Part shown: piece after piece, positions 37,333-62,932 of the stretch
How the letters are laid out: every line of letters starts with the position of its first letter
Position numbering within the stretch: position 1 is the first letter of the stretch
DNA from: an uncultured bacterium
Lineage (GTDB): Bacteria > Omnitrophota > Omnitrophia > Omnitrophales > Aquincolibacteriaceae
DNA length: 64,000 nt
Assembly: GCA_964482725.1 (NCBI GenBank)
Contig: CAYZYT010000005.1
Span: 88,133 to 152,132 of the forward strand
Reading direction: 5' to 3'
Made by a program: the position numbers and the translations under genes
The notes under the pieces: generated by a model
Database searches by the model: none
Seen by the model: the letters and a program-made list of their open reading frames with translations, nothing else
What the model was told of the DNA's origin: nothing

Positions 37333-37405
37333 TGGACCTGAGGAGAATTGAACTCCTGGCCTCTGCAATGCGAATGCAGCGCTCTACCAGCTGAGCTACA
37401 GGCCC
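37333..37405 (-). tRNA. tRNA-Ala (anticodon CGC)
   Basis: Minus-strand sequence is GGGCCTGTAGCTCAGCTGGTAGAGCGCTGCATTCGCATTGCAGAGGCCAGGAGTTCAATTCTCCTCAGGTCCA. It forms a cloverleaf with a 7-bp acceptor, the G3:U70 Ala identity pair, anticodon loop TTCGCAT and a TTCAATT T-loop. CCA is not encoded. Confidence 0.85.
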
Positions 37406-42530: not shown

Positions 42531-44570
42531 TTATTCTAGCAGAAGCTGGCGTATGTCCGCCAGTTGTTCGCGGGTCTTCTTCACACCTTCTTCGATGAAC
42601 TTGTGTGCGGAAAAGAATTCGATCCAGTGAGCGTCGGGAACGGCGGCATGGATAAAAATATCCGCCTCACTTCCTTCCATCCGCGCAATCTCAAATTCGG
42701 TGAACATGATGGAATTCATCATCACGTTAAAGATATTGGCCGTATAACGTCGCTGGATTCGATCCAGGGTCTTCATCGCGATACGCTGCCAATGACCCCG
42801 TTGTTGAAACCCCTCATGAAAGGCCTTGCGCCGCAGTTCATTACGCTCGATCAGATCCTTGGGAGCGGGCAGGACATTGACCGCGATAATTTTGCGAACC
42901 CCCATATTGGATAAGACCTTCACCGGAAGCGGATCCACGATGCCGCCATCGATGAGATAACTTCCCTTATACGGGTAGGGGCGGAGGAACCCCGGGATCG
43001 AGATCGACGCACGGACCGCATTCAGAACACTTCCGGAGTCCAACACCACCTCTTCGGAGGTTAAAAGATCCGTCGCCACCATCTTGACGGGGATCTTGAG
43101 GTCCAGGAACGTCATGTCTTTCAAATACGCCGACAAGAACTGAGTGATCTGGTTCCCTTTAAAAAATCCACGATGGATCGCCGAAATATCCCGAAAACCC
43201 AACAGCTTGAAGAAGGCATTCTTCTTATCCAGAGATTTTGCGATCTTCTCGATCTCGTACGAATCATACCCGGCCGCCCAAAGTGTCCCGATAAGAGCCC
43301 CGATGCTCGAACCCGCGAGAACGTCTACGGGGATCTTCTCCTGCTCCAGGACCCGAAGCACCCCAATGTGGGAGAGACCGTAAGCAGCACCGCTCCCCAG
43401 CACCAACCCCACTAACCGCTCCGACCATTCCTTGGCCAAAAAGGTCATGGTCTTTTCGTACTGATACCGTTGGTATTGAAGCGAGGGAAGCGTGGAAAAA
43501 AGCTGTATCTCCCCCGACGGGCCCGACCCCTCCGCGGAAAAAGACCTCCCTTCCTGGGTAGGCATGATGATCTTGATCTCGTTTTTGCTGAACCCAAAAT
43601 CCTGACAGAGCTCTCCCACTTTCTTTGAAGCGAACGTGAAAACGTCAGTTCGTTTTTCCGCCCAGAGATAGACGCGATCCGAATAATTGAGCGCTTTAAC
43701 AGCGACCGGAGTATTGCGATCCGGAAGACAGATCACCAGGTAATCATAACGGTAGGTGAGATAGGTCAGGAGCGCCGTAAATTTCTTTTCATCCTCGTCC
43801 AGGGCCGCGTTGACCGCAAAAGGCAGCAAGTCAAAACTGGTTTCGTGGACCAGGATCGACTTCTGGATCGAAGATTCATGAGACGGATCCATCGTTTTAA
43901 GATCGAACCCGGAGACATCGCTTCGGCGGAACTCGGCGGGGAGAAGATTCCTTAATTTCCCGGAAAGGTCTAGAAGCAATACCTTGTTTTGGGTCTCATG
44001 CCGTAAGGTCTTGATGAAATCCACAAGAAAAAACGCCATCCCCTCCGTGGCAGCCGCAAAATAAAAAGCCGCGATGCGAACTTCACGCCGGTGATGGCTG
44101 TAGCCCAGATCTTCGCGGGTCAGATGCCGTCCGAGGGAACGGCTGAGATGGAGCGCCAGCGCGGGGATGGCATGAAGGAGTTGTTGAAAACTCTCCGAGC
44201 TGATCTTCAGAGCCACAGCATCGGTTTTGGCCTCCACCGATGCGCTATGCACGCTTCCGGTCAAAAGAGAGGTCTCGCCAAAATGCTCCCCCCGGTAGAA
44301 AAAAAGAAGTGTGGATTCCTTTTCCGGACCTCGGGCACGGGTAAAAAGACGGAATCGTCCTGAGATAATGATATAGAAAGCGTCCGGCACCGTCCCCTCT
44401 TCATAGACAAGGTCGCCGCGTTTAAACCCCACCAAGCGGGAATGCTTCTCGATCAGGGCTTGCTCTTCCGGCGCCAGGGACGAAAAAAGAGAGATCGAAT
44501 CTGTTAAATATCCCTCCTTCACCTCGGACTTCGCTTTTTTCCCAAATGAGAAAAAATTCATCATGCCCAA
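42531..44570 (-). CDS. Patatin-like phospholipase with an N-terminal cyclic-nucleotide-binding domain (NTE/RssA-like)
   Basis: The cNMP-binding region reads FKRGDLVYEEGTVPDAFYIIISGRF...GEHFGETSLL. Patatin motifs are GSGAAYG (GxGxxG), GSSIG (GxSxG) and DGG. Confidence 0.8.
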   Translation of the reverse strand: MGMMNFFSFGKKAKSEVKEGYLTDSISLFSSLAPEEQALIEKHSRLVGFKRGDLVYEEGTVPDAFYIIISGRFRLFTRARGPEKESTLLFFYRGEHFGETSLLTGSVHSASVEAKTDAVALKISSESFQQLLHAIPALALHLSRSLGRHLTREDLGYSHHRREVRIAAFYFAAATEGMAFFLVDFIKTLRHETQNKVLLLDLSGKLRNLLPAEFRRSDVSGFDLKTMDPSHESSIQKSILVHETSFDLLPFAVNAALDEDEKKFTALLTYLTYRYDYLVICLPDRNTPVAVKALNYSDRVYLWAEKRTDVFTFASKKVGELCQDFGFSKNEIKIIMPTQEGRSFSAEGSGPSGEIQLFSTLPSLQYQRYQYEKTMTFLAKEWSERLVGLVLGSGAAYGLSHIGVLRVLEQEKIPVDVLAGSSIGALIGTLWAAGYDSYEIEKIAKSLDKKNAFFKLLGFRDISAIHRGFFKGNQITQFLSAYLKDMTFLDLKIPVKMVATDLLTSEEVVLDSGSVLNAVRASISIPGFLRPYPYKGSYLIDGGIVDPLPVKVLSNMGVRKIIAVNVLPAPKDLIERNELRRKAFHEGFQQRGHWQRIAMKTLDRIQRRYTANIFNVMMNSIMFTEFEIARMEGSEADIFIHAAVPDAHWIEFFSAHKFIEEGVKKTREQLADIRQLLLE

Positions 44571-44740
44571 TTCTCCGTTCCCAAAATATAAAAAATTAAT
44601 TGGACTAGTCCTGGCAAACTTTTATGAAAATAAAATTGAGGCCAGGGCATGGGTGGATTATCGGCAGAAAAGACTATTCCCCTTATAGTCGCAAGAACAA
44701 AGATCAGGGGAATCCCCAGAGGTCTTCAAAGAAATCCAAG

Positions 44741-47944: not shown

Positions 47945-48238
47945 TTAAGCTTTTTTGGAATCGCCGGCTGGTTTTCCAGCAGCCTTACCGGCGGGCTTCG
48001 CGGCGGCCGCGGGTGCTGCGGCGCCCGGAGCTGCGGCTCCGTCAGCAGCGCCTGCCTTCGCCTCTTTGACCTTCTTCATCTTGATCTTCTGGGACTTTAC
48101 TTTGGGAAGGTTGTAAGCCGTTCCACCCTCGGTCCACTTACCCATCTCTTGAAGCTTTTTAACGCGTTCGAGACGCTTGAAAACATTTCGGTGTTTGGCT
48201 CCGACACTGTCAGAACGCAAGCTAGGATGCTGGGACAT
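47945..48238 (-). CDS. Small basic protein with an Ala/Lys/Pro-rich histone-H1-like C-terminal tail
   Basis: 97 aa with an AAAPGAAAPAAAAKPAGKAAGKPAG tail. AAAGGAG RBS about 12 nt upstream of the ATG, and TATAAT -10 at 48381-48386 (minus strand). Confidence 0.55.
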   Translation of the reverse strand: MSQHPSLRSDSVGAKHRNVFKRLERVKKLQEMGKWTEGGTAYNLPKVKSQKIKMKKVKEAKAGAADGAAAPGAAAPAAAAKPAGKAAGKPAGDSKKA

Positions 48239-48380
48239 AAGACAATAAACTCCTTTGTTAGTACCGCGTTCCCTTTGATTCTAGGGGTTAACGATACACG
48301 ACTGCGAACTCTTAACCTCAACAGTAACGCAGCATTAGTGAATTGGATCGGCCCGAACAGTTGTGCTGTTGGAGGAGCGT

Positions 48381-48386
48381 ATTATA
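48381..48386 (-). promoter_or_regulatory. -10 hexamer TATAAT for the small basic protein gene, located just downstream of the tandem repeats
   Basis: The reverse complement of attata at 48381-48386 gives tataat about 140 nt upstream of ATG 48238. Confidence 0.4.
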
Positions 48387-48407
48387 CCGATGCAGAATGA
48401 AAATGGC

Positions 48408-48573
48408 TAGTCCCAATTCTTATCAATTTCAGCAAATCTGAAATTGGGGCAATCCTTGTTACCCTTATGGTAAAGAATGAAAAACAAGGATAGTCCCAAT
48501 TCTTATCAATTTCAGCAAATCTGAAATTGGGGCAATCCTTGTTACCCTTATGGTAAAGAATGAAAAACAAGGA
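48408..48573. repeat. Perfect tandem direct repeat, 2 x 83 bp. Each unit contains nested, mutually exclusive palindromes (caatttcag/ctgaaattg and cccaatt/aattggg).
   Basis: Unit tagtcccaattcttatcaatttcagcaaatctgaaattggggcaatccttgttacccttatggtaaagaatgaaaaacaagga occurs at 48408-48490 and again at 48491-48573, read directly from the sequence. Confidence 0.9.
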
Positions 48574-48634
48574 AAGCTGAAAAGCCTCGGAAAGATCTTA
48601 TTTTAAAGCGGCTTAAAAAAAGAATGAGACCGGA

Positions 48635-49282
48635 TCAGCGAACCATCGGCCTGACATAAGCGTCGCCAGAGACAAGCCCCTGACCTCTCAGTTGCTTGAG
48701 TATCTGGGTGGCATCCTGGCGCGACTGGAATGCCGCAATACAAACCTGGAGATGTTTGCCACTCGGGATCACGAAAGACGTATATCCCTTTTGAGAAAGT
48801 TTTTGGATCTCACGATCCGCGGCCGACTGGGTGATGTAGGTCACATGCTGGATCGTAAACTTTCCGTCAGGCTTCGCGACCTTCGCCACGGGCTTCGGCA
48901 ACTCCGGCACCGTGATCGGGACCTCTTGGGGGACCGACTCATCGATCACAGCCACCCCGGGGGTCTTCGCGACAGAAGCAACAACGGCCGGCGCAGATTC
49001 CTCCGGAAGAACTTCGGCCGCAGTCGAACGGATCACCTGACTCTCGCGCGAAGAAGACCACTTCCCCTTTTCAACGCCCCAGGAAAAGGTCAGCACATAA
49101 ACAACCAGGAGGACAAGAATGAGCCCGATCGCTTGATCGAGACGCAGCGTGATAAAGTTCTTTTCGAGAAAAGAAGTTTTTGGGACCGCGGGTTCTTCTG
49201 AAAGAGTGCGGGGTGATGGCAGATCAAATAATTCCGTTTGCATGATTGGTTCCTCCGTACAACTATTTACGACAAATTGCAC
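48635..49282 (-). CDS. SPOR-domain membrane protein
   Basis: TM segment (LILVLLVVYVLTF) and C-terminal SPOR-like segment (FTIQHVTYITQSAADREIQKLSQKGYTSFVIPSGKHLQVCIAAFQSRQDATQ). Confidence 0.6.
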   Translation of the reverse strand: MQFVVNSCTEEPIMQTELFDLPSPRTLSEEPAVPKTSFLEKNFITLRLDQAIGLILVLLVVYVLTFSWGVEKGKWSSSRESQVIRSTAAEVLPEESAPAVVASVAKTPGVAVIDESVPQEVPITVPELPKPVAKVAKPDGKFTIQHVTYITQSAADREIQKLSQKGYTSFVIPSGKHLQVCIAAFQSRQDATQILKQLRGQGLVSGDAYVRPMVR

Positions 49283-55469: not shown

Positions 55470-55530
55470 CTATAGACCACAGACACGAGACAAGAGAAAA
55501 AATGTCGCTAGTCTGTGGTCTCTGGTCTGT
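55470..55530 (-). promoter_or_regulatory. Hairpin-forming spacer (11-bp inverted repeat AGACCACAGAC / GTCTGTGGTCT with a loop of about 27 nt) between trpB and trpA
   Basis: Read directly from the sequence. trpB and trpA are usually overlapping or tightly coupled; here they are separated by a 73-nt structured spacer. Confidence 0.3.
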
Positions 55531-55534
55531 AGTC

Positions 55535-56761
55535 TCAGAGGTATTTCTGCACCGTATGAATGTCTTTATCGCCGCGGCCGGAAAGACACACGATCACGAT
55601 ATCGTTTTTCTTTATTCTAGGCATGAGCTTCGGAAGATAACCCAGCGCGTGCGCAGGCTCGAGCGCCGGCATGATTCCTTCAAGCTTTGTTAATAGATCG
55701 AATCCCTTGAGCGCGTCCTTGTCCGTCACGGCTTGATAGTCCACGCGTCCCGAATCTTTCAAATACGAATGCTCCGGCCCCACGGACGGATAATCCAGAC
55801 CCGCCGAGATCGAATGCGCCAACTGCACCTGGCCGTTCTTGTCCTGAAGCAAATAACTCTTCATGCCATGCAAAATGCCGGGCCTTCCCTTCGTGATCGA
55901 TGCCGCGTGATGCGCGGTGTTCACCCCTTCGCCGGCCGCTTCGATCCCAAGAATGCGAACATTCCGATCCTTAAGGAACGGATGGAAAAACCCCATGGAG
56001 TTACTGCCACCGCCGACACAGGCTAAAAGATAATTCGGGAGACGCCCGACGGCCTTGACGATCTGCCGTCGCGTTTCCGTTCCGATCACTTCCTGAAAAT
56101 CGCGTACCATCCCCGGATAAGGATGCGGCCCCACGACTGAGCCCAACAGATAATGCGTGTCCTCCACATTCGTGACCCAATCCCGAATGGCTTCGTTCGT
56201 CGCGTCCTTCAGGGTCTTCGATCCCGAATGGACCGGCCGCACTTCCGCGCCCAGCAGCTTCATCTTGTAAACATTCAGGGCCTGGCGCTCGATATCCACC
56301 GCGCCCATGTAGACCACGCACTTGAGCCCGAACACGCAGGCCGCCGTCGCGGACGCAACGCCATGCTGCCCGGCCCCGGTTTCGGCCACAAGACGCGTTT
56401 TCCCGAGCCGTTTGGCCAAAAGCCCCTGGGCAAGCGTGTTATTGATCTTGTGAGCGCCGGTGTGGAGAAGGTCTTCGCGCTTCAGGAAGATCCTTCCGCG
56501 GCCAAAATGCGCGGAGAGATTTTTCGCTTCATAAAGAGGGGTTGGACGTCCGGCGTAGTTCTCGAGATAAGAACGCAATTCTTCCCGGAACTTCTTATCG
56601 CCTTTGATCGACTGATAAGCCGCGGTCAATTCTTCGCAGGCCTTCACAAGCGTTTCGGGAACATAGCGTCCGCCATAAGGACCGAAATGACCTTTCGCGT
56701 CTGGAACCTTTTTTATTCCTCCCGAAAAGCAACGCTGTCTTACACAAGGCTTCAATGTCAA
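55535..56761 (-). CDS. trpB: Tryptophan synthase beta chain
   Basis: PLP-binding region HTGAHKINN and GGGSNSMG. 408 aa. Confidence 0.92.
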
Positions 56762-60591: not shown

Positions 60592-61691
60592 TCCTTCTCC
60601 AATTGTGAGGTAGAGATCCCAAGCACTTCCTCGATCGCCTGTTCCGCGGGCTTCCCTTCCTTGAACTTCACCAGGATCTCTTTCATTCGGTACAGTTGAA
60701 AACGCTCCACCAGATAGCGAACAAGCACGAACACCTCCTGGTAAAAAAGCGCGACCTCCAGAGGGTCCATCTTGTCTATTTGCAAACTCTCGGAAAGGAG
60801 CCGGCTCATCGGCATGAGGGCCTGCGTCCGAACGGCCGCGTTAAAAACCGTCGTATCCACCGGCTGGACCTTATTTTGCTCATATTGAGCCAGACCTTCA
60901 TGGATCCAGGCCGGAGCACGCGCCCCACTCAGGGCCGACACGAATGCGTGGGTCATCTCGTGAACTGCGGCCGACCGCAAGTCGGCCTCTCTAAAACCCT
61001 GGCGATAGGCCGGAAGCCGAATTTTCCCGTCATAGAGCCCCCCCACCCACAAGGATTGTCCGGTCACAGCATGAAAATCTTTCCCGGAATAAAAAAGAAC
61101 CGTGGTCTTATGATTGAAATAAGCGCCGAAGTCCTGCGAGATCTGGCGGTACACCTCCCGCAAGAGGGTCTTCAACCAATCCCCTTCGTAGCCCTGCTCG
61201 CCCTTCCGGTATTTGATGATGAAGTGCTCTTCATCGTAAGTATCGAGATCTTTTTCGACTAAATTTTCTTTTTGGATCTTTTCGATCTTCTGGCGCAACC
61301 GTGTCGAGGGGCTCACGAGATAACTTTGTTTATAAAAATTTTCAGCCTTTTTAAAATTCTGTTGGAGATTCTCGATCTCCCCCAGAAGCTCCAGGGCCAA
61401 GGCGTTCCTCGGCTCCAGCGAAAGCGACTCATTGAGCGCATCGCGGGCCAGCTCGAATTCATTTTTCTCAAAGAACTTAACCGCGTCATTATAAAGCTCG
61501 ATCGCCATAGGCGTCATCGGCGCACGCCCGCCCTTCCCGGCGTAAAACCTCTCGATCTCGATCTTTTGCCGGCGTTCCACCGTCTCTTTGCCGCGGTCAT
61601 CCCCGTTGGGGGCGGCATAGGTACAATCTGCAGCAAGAAAAATCAAAAACGGTAGCGCAACGCACAACGCGCAACGCGCAACGATTTTCAT
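60567..61691 (-). CDS. Secreted TPR-containing protein with an HExxH zinc-metalloprotease-like motif. The start is probably the MKIVARCAL Met, not the upstream track start at 61787.
   Basis: Signal peptide (ALCVALPFLIFLAADCTYA), TPR-like segment, and HEMTHAFVSAL...EGLAQYE (HExxH + E). Confidence 0.5.
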   Translation of the reverse strand: MKIVARCALCVALPFLIFLAADCTYAAPNGDDRGKETVERRQKIEIERFYAGKGGRAPMTPMAIELYNDAVKFFEKNEFELARDALNESLSLEPRNALALELLGEIENLQQNFKKAENFYKQSYLVSPSTRLRQKIEKIQKENLVEKDLDTYDEEHFIIKYRKGEQGYEGDWLKTLLREVYRQISQDFGAYFNHKTTVLFYSGKDFHAVTGQSLWVGGLYDGKIRLPAYRQGFREADLRSAAVHEMTHAFVSALSGARAPAWIHEGLAQYEQNKVQPVDTTVFNAAVRTQALMPMSRLLSESLQIDKMDPLEVALFYQEVFVLVRYLVERFQLYRMKEILVKFKEGKPAEQAIEEVLGISTSQLEKEWLATIKS

Positions 61692-61693
61692 AA

Positions 61694-62878
61694 TCACGAG
61701 CCTCGAGTCTCTGGTCTCTGGTCTAAAGTCGGGTGTTTGGCCATTTTCACACGTTTGCCGATCGACGGATGGTCGTAAAAAAACCACTCATACCAAGACG
61801 GCGGCTCCGGATCTGCGAGGTTCTGCGCACCCAGTTTCTCCATACAAGTAATGAAAACTTCCGGTGTCCCAAGCGCTTTTAATGCGAACTCATCCGCGGC
61901 CCGTTCCCGCCGCCTGGAATAACCGTTCATGATCGGCATCAGGATCAGATTGACAACATAAAAGATCAAGAAAAGCAACGGCAAGCCCGCCGCATCCGCC
62001 GTGGAATTCAAGGACAGCCCAGGGGCCAGCGCATTCATTCCAAAGAACCCGGTGGCAAACGCCATAAGCGAAGCCACGAGGCCAAACGCCAGCAGCCGCC
62101 AGATATCACGATTTTTGAAATGGCCCAGCTCATGCGCCACGACCACCTCCACCTCGGAATGCGTGAAGTTCTGAGTTAACGTATCGCTTAAAACCACGCG
62201 CTTGGTCCTCCCGAGTCCCATGAACGCCGCGTTCGCCTTCTTGGTCGTCTTGCTCAAATTGAGCGAATAGACGTTCCCGACCGGCATGTCAAAACGGGCA
62301 GCAAGTTTCAGAACTTTCGTCTCCAGTTCCTTATCTTCAAGCCTACCATACTTATAGAAAAGCGGGACGATCACAACAGGGAAAACCTTCCCGAGGATAT
62401 AACTCACGAACGCGTAAGCCGCCCAGGCCCAGACCCACCAGCTCCAAGGGAACTGTCGGATCAAAAAATACAAACATTCCAGAAGGACGAGCGACAACAC
62501 AAATGAAAGCAGCGTCTTCTTCCCGAGATCCAAAAGCCACTGGCCGAAGTTCTGGTTCGAGAGACCAAATTGGTGCTCCAGAACAAATCCGGAATAAAAA
62601 GAAAGCGGCAGATCGAAGATCAGAAAAAAAAGGGAAAAGAGAACAAAATAGACCGCGATAACACCCCACTCACTGACTCCGGCGAGCGCAATGGCGTTCT
62701 GCCGCATCCCGAACGTCCATCCGCTCGCGATCAGGATGCCGAGAAGCGCTGGCGTAAGGATAAGGTGGAAAAGCGTCAGCTTGCGCTTGATGCCTTGATA
62801 TGCCGCAGCTTGTTTCGATTGATCAGCCTGTATTTCCATATCGGCCCTCAGTGGCAGGTCGCATATCGTATGTCGCAT
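61694..62878 (-). CDS. M48-family (HtpX/Ste24-like) integral-membrane zinc peptidase
   Basis: Multi-TM N-terminus, VVVAHELGHFKNRD (HExxH) and downstream ERAADEFA Glu ligand. Confidence 0.8.
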   Translation of the reverse strand: MRHTICDLPLRADMEIQADQSKQAAAYQGIKRKLTLFHLILTPALLGILIASGWTFGMRQNAIALAGVSEWGVIAVYFVLFSLFFLIFDLPLSFYSGFVLEHQFGLSNQNFGQWLLDLGKKTLLSFVLSLVLLECLYFLIRQFPWSWWVWAWAAYAFVSYILGKVFPVVIVPLFYKYGRLEDKELETKVLKLAARFDMPVGNVYSLNLSKTTKKANAAFMGLGRTKRVVLSDTLTQNFTHSEVEVVVAHELGHFKNRDIWRLLAFGLVASLMAFATGFFGMNALAPGLSLNSTADAAGLPLLFLIFYVVNLILMPIMNGYSRRRERAADEFALKALGTPEVFITCMEKLGAQNLADPEPPSWYEWFFYDHPSIGKRVKMAKHPTLDQRPETRGS

Positions 62879-62932
62879 GTCGTCTGCACACCGCCGTCTT
62901 CCTATTTCGACATACGACCTACCACCTACGAC

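Follow-up and report, generated by a model that had tools for sequence, protein, structure and literature searches.

Background

Bacterial genomes carry several kinds of small dispersed repeat, and the repeat family described here, from the candidate phylum Omnitrophota, resembles REP/BIME sequences, MITEs, BOX elements and, especially in its in-frame insertion, Rickettsia palindromic elements (RPEs), but is a member of none of them. RPEs are small, hairpin-forming, non-coding repeats of ~100-150 bp that to our knowledge are restricted to Rickettsia and that lie between genes, beside RNA genes or in frame within genes whose ORF is kept. The Omnitrophota repeat shares these traits and placements, the in-frame case being a stretch of 28 codons in a histidine kinase gene. 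It is unrelated in sequence to RPEs and differs from them in its length of 80 nt, its matching C-Y-R flanking triplets and its head-to-tail arrays. REPs are single hairpins of 20-40 nt with a GTAG head, typically paired in inverted orientation. REP/BIME sequences and REPINs (associated with RAYT Y1 transposases) resemble the Omnitrophota element in being high-copy and mostly extragenic, in lacking long terminal inverted repeats, in forming composite arrays and in having a structure maintained by compensatory changes. However, the Omnitrophota element has two distinct hairpins over its 80 nt, lacks the GTAG head and forms direct arrays with an 83-84-nt period; no RAYT was seen among the proteins encoded near its copies.

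The MITEs, among them Correia/NEMIS, RUP and ERIC, are likewise small and non-autonomous, with short duplicated target flanks, presence/absence polymorphism and insertions beside promoters and gene ends. Two properties of classical MITEs, a non-coding sequence below ~500 bp and a target duplication, were found in the Omnitrophota element, whereas the third, clear terminal inverted repeats (at least ~10 nt) that match a parent IS, was not: its ends (TCCTTGTC... and ...AATTGGGA) are inverted only over TCC/GGA (3 nt), after which the left end is variable between copies for 5 nt. It also differs in that its flanking triplet varies between subfamilies in one genome and tracks an internal triplet, which would not be expected of a single DDE transposase whose target preference is fixed. 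The pneumococcal BOX element (boxA-boxB(n)-boxC) is similarly modular, with a variable number of tandem internal modules, a stable secondary structure and intergenic positions near promoters, but its sequences and module structure are unrelated, and we know of no reported target duplication for it. Finally, IS200/IS605 ends and PATEs have hairpins instead of inverted terminal repeats, empty sites that look precisely restored, and a flanking target complementary to an internal guide, for which the Omnitrophota counterparts would be the flank/internal triplets CCG/CGG, CCA/TGG and CGG/CCG. IS200/IS605 elements have two similar subterminal hairpins and insert on the 3' side of a target of four or five nucleotides, which is not duplicated; in contrast, the hairpins of the Omnitrophota element are dissimilar, the same triplet stands on both sides, and no Y1 transposase was identified near the copies. 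We found no description of such repeats in Omnitrophota (Omnitrophica) in the searchable literature, and the family is apparently undescribed.

Tandem array upstream of a small-basic-protein gene

The window, i.e. the whole 64-kb stretch of Omnitrophota DNA analysed here, contains a single outstanding tandem array, located at 48408-48573 (period 83, 2.0 copies, 100% matches, score 332 in Tandem Repeats Finder, TRF). Its two units are the only copies of the 83-bp sequence in the window when up to 3 mismatches are allowed, with 0 expected by chance. The preliminary description of this locus, made from the sequence alone, had reported two identical, non-coding units between a SPOR-domain gene and the -10 of a small-protein promoter, and each of these points was confirmed. 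The -10 proved to be paired with a -35-like hexamer at a regular spacing (Table 1). Each unit contains the 9-bp stem CAATTTCAG/CTGAAATTG (48424-48432/48438-48446 and 48507-48515/48521-48529) and the overlapping CCCAATT/AATTGGG stem, which had been proposed as alternatives; both are present and, as detailed below, backed by compensatory changes across the family. Three further features had not been recognized: a second hairpin in each unit, TCCTTGTT..22 nt..AACAAGGA (inverted repeat I10), a 19-nt imperfect inverted repeat (I2/I3) that spans the unit junctions, and the position of the -35, which straddles the proximal repeat boundary. Comparison of empty and occupied sites was used to set the boundaries of the copies. 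By these boundaries, 80 nt of the 83-bp unit form an element with two hairpins, and the other 3 nt are a flanking triplet of the C-Y-R type, here CTA.

Table 1. Features of the repeat locus and its surroundings in window coordinates. R1, covariance model built from 102 copies of the element
Feature	Position	Strand	Evidence and remarks
Decayed copy of the element family (hairpin 1 CCTGGC/GCCAGG and degenerate core)	44572..44656	-	R1 25 bits, E=2e-4, filters off; inspected
Small basic protein gene (TIGR04137)	47945..48238	-	97 aa; NCBIfam 68.8 bits, cut-off 50
Second lineage-specific insertion (~80 nt) in the 5' UTR, from a different small repeat family (family B)	48250..48340	-	Absent from L005-L010; present in L133; related copies in L123, L050, L041, L037
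Sigma-70-type promoter of the small-basic-protein gene: -35 TAGCCA (48404-48409), 17-nt spacer, -10 TATAAT (48381-48386)	48381..48409	-	Consensus scan, 10/12 matches
Right flanking triplet CTA; TA = first two bases of the -35 TAGCCA	48408..48410	-	Site comparison
Hairpin 2/conserved core of copy 2, CCCCAATTTCAG-N5-CTGAAATTGATAAGAATTGGGA	48411..48449	-	I7/I8 and covariation; copy 1 equivalent 48494-48532
Element copy 2 (proximal, promoter side), 80 nt, identical to copy 1	48411..48490	-	TRF 100% identity; R1 match 48404-48499, 95 bits, E=2e-22
Junction triplet CTA, common to copies 1 and 2	48491..48493	-	Left = right triplet in 39/56 sites
Element copy 1 (distal, SPOR side), 80 nt, TCCTTGTT...AATTGGGA	48494..48573	-	TRF; R1 match 48500-48576, 67 bits
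Hairpin 1 of copy 1, stem TCCTTGTT/AACAAGGA, 22-nt T-rich loop	48536..48573	-	Inverted repeat I10 and covariation; copy 2 equivalent 48453-48490
Left flanking triplet CTT, degenerate copy of the CTA target	48574..48576	-	Reads cagCTT|TCCTTG; uninterrupted site of relatives has CTA or CTG
SPOR-domain protein gene	48635..49243	-	ATG at 49243; ORF reaches GTG at 49282; 202-aa product on record in other assemblies

A coding function of the array was rejected. The ORFs across the units are short frames without support, and neither a 62-aa ORF (48382-48570) nor a 15-codon plus-strand frame is conserved across copies, because the ATG falls in the variable loop. A consensus scan found neither a promoter nor an intrinsic terminator inside the 83-bp unit, the small-protein promoter being the sole match; TTGACA- and TATAAT-like hexamers in some copies were dismissed by eye for wrong spacing.

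All local genes lie on the minus strand, in the order lepA, signal peptidase I, SPOR-domain gene, repeat, 97-aa gene, GNAT acetyltransferase, second SPOR gene, PilZ and YajQ. Good alignment with homologues of the small basic protein is limited to the ~50 N-terminal residues, the C-terminal half (window 47945-48100) being of low complexity and rich in Lys, Ala, Pro and Gly. The family assignment retains the small basic protein of the preliminary description, whereas the epithet histone-like was only an impression from the Lys/Ala/Pro-rich tail. The -10 block (GCATCGGTATAATACG) and the early 5' UTR are invariant across the species compared. Just after the -10, the segment at 48356-48380 (minus strand) reads CTCCTCCAACAG-N5-CTGTTCGG, a 5-bp hairpin that is near-invariant across species with or without the repeat and that could be a leader element of the small-basic-protein mRNA. 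The family B insertion further downstream has inverted-repeat-like ends (CTAATGCTGCG...CGCGGTACTAAC), and in several genomes the main element is inserted in the middle of family B, at GTA-CYG-TTAAC. Elsewhere in the window, the decayed copy of the main element adjoins the start of a large gene (42531-44570) on its upstream side, and its degenerate core includes a GGAG that resembles the ribosome-binding site of this gene. Tandem Repeats Finder also reported 7-nt tandem repeats at 55511-55536, 61707-61724, 61655-61683 and 62854-62882; the heptamer GTCTCTG is repeated at two separate places in the window, with GCGCAAC x4 and GCATGTC x4 nearby.

Assembly support for the tandem

Mis-resolved graph loops can give perfectly identical short tandem units, and the preliminary description had named a single-unit locus, duplicated by the assembler, as an alternative. 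Our evidence on this point comes from contigs, and we regard this alternative as very improbable. Logan contigs (k=31) of three sequencing runs were recovered by exact-protein look-ups. Their breaks fall in the units at a depth of exactly 30 nt (k-1): two of them start 30 nt into the proximal unit and two stop 30 nt into the distal unit. Such breaks are the signature of a graph branch between unit-flank and unit-unit junctions, and are expected on both sides if the junction k-mers are present in the reads. In addition, three units that differ slightly occupy this site in an independent JGI contig from a ~97%-identical strain, and tandem arrays are found there in other species. The 2 x 83-bp repeat is therefore not an artefact of one assembly.

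Insertion and copy number at the promoter site

In six contigs of relatives with the same gene order (L005-L010), the SPOR and small-protein genes are separated by ~150 nt, and the alignment runs uninterrupted through ...CTTTTCAG-CT(A/G)-G(C/G)C(A/T)TTT...GCATCGGTATAATACG.... Compared with these contigs, the window contains exactly 166 extra nt (2 x 83) at the upstream edge of the -35. Since relatives with the same gene order have an uninterrupted site without units, the units represent an insertion, and the duplication of CTA keeps the -35 hexamer intact. The occupied junction ...ATTGGGA-CTA-GCCATTT...GTATAAT was found elsewhere with one clean copy (L065) or with composite or tandem arrays (L051, L057, L081, L098), and a metagenome scan for it yielded ten further contigs with 1 to 4 or more units. 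Altogether, the array length at this promoter is 0, 1, 2, 3 or 4+ units across strains and species.

The closest comparison is the three-unit JGI strain (L133), which shares ~97% identity with the window over 3 kb, along with the 5' UTR insertion. The two units of the window are identical to each other, as are the second and third units of L133, while its first unit differs from the second at 2 nt. Whichever window unit is compared with whichever L133 unit, the same three positions in loop 1 are different, and a 53-nt core is identical in all five units. The units are thus homogenised within each strain, which points to recent local duplication and contraction and not to two independent insertions; the recent duplication or active copy-number variation suspected in the preliminary description is borne out by this comparison. 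JGI samples 3300029286 and 3300029268 (L009/L130 and L010/L133) contain related populations with an empty site, two-unit and three-unit arrays at this promoter. Upstream of the small-protein promoter in L081, L098, L057 and L125/L126 we observed a variant core module (CCCAATCTCAGCTTCGCTTCGATTGATTGGGATTGGGAC) and extra hairpin-1 modules, both without their partners. These partnerless modules indicate a modular family, with arrangements such as H1-H1-core'-core-(H1-core)n.

Distribution and architecture of the family

The core pattern CCCAATTTCAG-N5-CTGAAATTG, with 20 specified bases, was scanned in GTDB with one genome per species (596 Gb). At least 113 matching stretches were obtained, compared with ~1 expected by chance according to our calculation. 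Nearly all of the matches listed come from Omnitrophota MAGs, in at least 18 assemblies and often with 5-9 per assembly, while five matches outside this phylum consist of the palindrome alone, with nothing else of the element. Viral contigs gave 0 matches to the core pattern, and a phage origin was rejected on this ground. The exact 20-nt core seed biases the sample of copies. In the 706 kb of loci that were fetched, the covariance model R1 found 156 copies, of which about 50 lack the exact core. Within the window, the 64 kb covered of its own genome, R1 detected the two intact units and the decayed copy.

Read on the minus strand of the window, the layout of the family comprises an optional ATTGGGA and a C-Y-R triplet, followed by TCC with 5 variable bp, a T-rich loop of ~22 nt, the complementary 5 bp with GGA, and the internal triplet with a subsequent C. 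The core CCCAATTTCAG-N5-CTGAAATTG then leads through ATARGWATTGGGA to the second C-Y-R triplet. About 45 nt of the element are conserved at >=90% across copies. The repeat matched no family in Rfam 15, even at E up to 10. The only gathering-level Rfam match in the window is a tRNA (37333-37405), and the best permissive match in 48100-48800 reached 20 bits against a cut-off of 76.8.

Within one and the same genome, composites of two to three family members (~270-320 nt) appear more than once, at unrelated positions. A larger repeat ('site 3'), considered as a possible IS, turned out to be only such a 270-320-nt composite. At an orthologous intergenic site (L084 1861-2363 versus L032 4356-4842 and L120), the flanking genes match on one strand and a ~490-nt repeat composite on the other. 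This mismatch implies opposite orientations of the whole composite between species, brought about by inversion or by separate insertions.

The preliminary description had contrasted its promoter-based readings with a generic, REP-like element common throughout the genome and unconnected with promoters. The distribution found here is essentially that of such a dispersed element, yet the promoter-adjacent site is occupied in many species.

Conserved structure and readings that depend on it

RNAalifold, applied to a MAFFT alignment built from sequence only, predicted stem 1 and hairpin 2. In stem 1 of the structure that we specified, 93% of alignment cells are paired, compared with at most 45% when the partners are slid, and double-sided changes number 230 cells versus 84 +/- 7 in shuffles (0/500). 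They occur in 10 of the 11 pairs of stem 1; for instance, pair 18-51 is UA in 50 copies, AU in 27, GC in 14 and CG in 3. Because hairpin 2 is fixed by the search pattern, its covariation was judged on pattern-independent R1 matches. Its inner stem occurs as CAG/CTG, CAA/TTG, CCA/TGG and CCG/CGG, with CAATC/GATTG replaced by CGATC/GATCG, and its outer stem as CCCAATT/AATTGGG, CCTGATT/AATCAGG and TCATGATT/AATCATGA. The structure of the element is under selection.

Such covariation in both hairpins would be expected of a structured RNA, i.e. a multi-copy small RNA or a cis-acting leader or processing element, in which case the promoter array would be transcribed and act at the RNA level. Copies retained at orthologous intergenic sites across species, the better folding of single units than of shuffled sequences (z -2.4 to -3.8, a modest excess) and the short distance to the downstream gene boundary (<=10 nt at 17 of 60 sites) also favour this reading. 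However, when one copy per independent site is considered, stem 1 mismatches comprise 23 G.U and 23 A.C. A strand-specific RNA should tolerate G.U on one strand only, and the equal counts therefore show no RNA-strand signature. The lack of a promoter or terminator in the unit and the absence of an Rfam match speak against an RNA as well, as do several properties of the insertion sites described below: near-equal numbers in the two orientations between co-directional genes, duplicated triplets, empty sites in homologous loci, and a reverse-strand, in-frame insertion in a kinase gene. We consider a structured RNA unlikely. The narrower suggestion of the preliminary description, a small RNA dedicated to this promoter, is not supported: close relatives lack the unit at this site, and the element is dispersed in many copies per genome, with duplicated triplets and empty sites.

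The preliminary description had also likened the units to an operator array for a dimeric regulator, and a palindromic core bound by a regulator or nucleoid protein could in principle make the two units a binding-site array that regulates the promoter. Consistent with this are the perfect 9+9 palindrome within a core of ~45 highly conserved nt, the 83-84-bp period, which by our arithmetic is close to 8 helical turns, and the position beside the -35 of a conserved promoter at a site occupied in many species. In contrast, the stems change sequence and yet keep complementarity, which agrees with nucleic-acid folding and not with a fixed protein operator. Moreover, close relatives keep the same conserved promoter without any unit, and the copies are not promoter-specific but dispersed in both orientations, after tRNAs, at stop codons and, in frame, inside the kinase gene. 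An operator array is accordingly quite unlikely. IHF binds some REP and Correia elements, and incidental binding of a host protein may likewise occur here.

Insertion sites and probable mobility

For the analysis of sites, copies were grouped by their flanks into 60 sites, and orientations were counted relative to genes called by a crude codon-score caller trained on these loci. By these counts, the element between co-directional genes has the same orientation at 23 sites and the opposite one at 20, whereas 10 sites lie between divergent genes and 2 between convergent genes. Of 56 independent sites, 39 have the same triplet on the left and on the right, compared with 12 expected (0/2000 shuffles). 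Besides the small-protein promoter, homologous loci that are empty and keep one triplet exist for L013 (versus L085), L036/L053 (versus L104), L043 (versus L111/L087) and L074 (versus L050). At 9 of the 60 sites, an opposite-strand ORF ends in a TAG stop supplied by the right CTA triplet. Some copies begin within the last 3-4 nt of tRNA-Val genes (366-439/427-523 in L078 and 5998-6073/5916-6012 in L100), and the 3' end of the tRNA is restored by the duplicated triplet.

A longest-ORF caller had placed 47 of 114 copies inside ORFs; this result was discarded, and a re-test with unmasked elements left one genuine in-gene site. There, an insertion of 84 nt adds 28 codons in frame (AVPILINFRESEIGAVPTTISEKKSKVGTV), with the element on the reverse strand, to a HAMP-PAS-HisKA-HATPase_c histidine kinase in four species (L018, L079 at 3488-3584, L106, L112). 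It is located in the extracytoplasmic Cache-like sensor region between the two copies of a duplicated CGG; a homologue with 85% identity (L109, ~4540-4700) lacks it.

The 744 proteins predicted near copies (~0.9 Mb) yielded neither a transposase nor any other autonomous partner. Neighbour proteins that recur in several copies were rejected as partners because they are of housekeeping types (MnmA, glycosyltransferase, prepilin peptidase, PstB and PilT-like). Taken as a whole, the repeat is best read as a non-autonomous mobile repeat of the MITE/REP/RPE kind that was locally expanded by tandem duplication, and we hold this to be probable. Several observations temper it. The copies have no autonomous partner among the neighbouring proteins, and their terminal inverted repeats do not exceed TCC/GGA. 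Many copies occupy orthologous positions between species, so that the distribution could be largely old and vertically inherited. The core is also conserved beyond the need of a purely selfish, decaying element, so that a role for the host, for example in binding a protein or in processing RNA, is conceivable.

As a non-autonomous mobile repeat, a copy of the element would land at a short C-Y-R triplet in either orientation, with the triplet then present on both sides. In the lineage of the window, a copy is present at CTA immediately before the -35 of the small-basic-protein promoter, and the second, identical copy probably arose recently by local tandem duplication through slippage or unequal recombination between units; the array length does change between closely related strains. 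The hairpins and the highly conserved core of ~45 nt are likely to be recognition features for a mobilising enzyme that probably acts on DNA. At the promoter itself, the array presumably has no dedicated regulatory role. It does replace the region from -36 to -200, and expression might change as a side effect; for the small-basic-protein gene, regulation by the array is possible, but nothing points to it.

Internal triplet and possible target choice

The internal triplet, located at the hinge of the two hairpins, covaries with the flanking triplets. The combinations of left/internal/right triplets were CTA/TTG/CTA at 18 sites, CCG/CGG/CCG at 7, CTG/CTG/CTG at 4, CCA/TGG/CCA at 3 and CGG/CCG/CGG at 2. 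Pairing between the internal triplet and the flank is a plain extension of stem 1, in which the middle base often forms a T.T mismatch. Different triplet types coexist in one assembly, as in JBAZER01, where L011, L018, L046 and L073 differ. A flanking triplet that varies between subfamilies and tracks the internal one is unexpected for a single transposase with a fixed target preference, and the pattern in the aligned copies suggests that the element itself may specify or carry its triplet. Such tracking resembles the guide-target pairing of IS200/IS605 or the core identity in site-specific recombination.

A further-reaching possibility, which we put forward tentatively and regard as doubtful, is that the family constitutes a new type of hairpin-based mini-transposon, whose target would be chosen by the element via its internal triplet. 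This triplet is complementary to both flanks and to the junction of a hypothetical tandem or circular 83-nt form, and the specificities CTA, CCG, CTG and CGG coexist within single genomes. If true, insertion would be guided by nucleic acid, with an enzyme of the HUH/Y1 or IS110 kind, instead of following a fixed protein target preference.

Significance

The array itself is unremarkable, although the family behind it is interesting: a mobile repeat beside a promoter was recently duplicated in tandem. With the family in view, a promoter curiosity becomes evidence for an abundant and apparently undescribed repeat family in a poorly studied candidate phylum. Its elements break short-read assemblies, as seen here in contigs that stop inside units, seed spurious ORFs and mimic regulatory sites. 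They also reshape promoters, untranslated regions and, at one site, a protein sequence. The variable array length at the small-protein promoter provides a strain or population marker for Omnitrophota. Should the internal triplet indeed specify the target, nature would offer in this family a compact case of an element that encodes its own choice of target.
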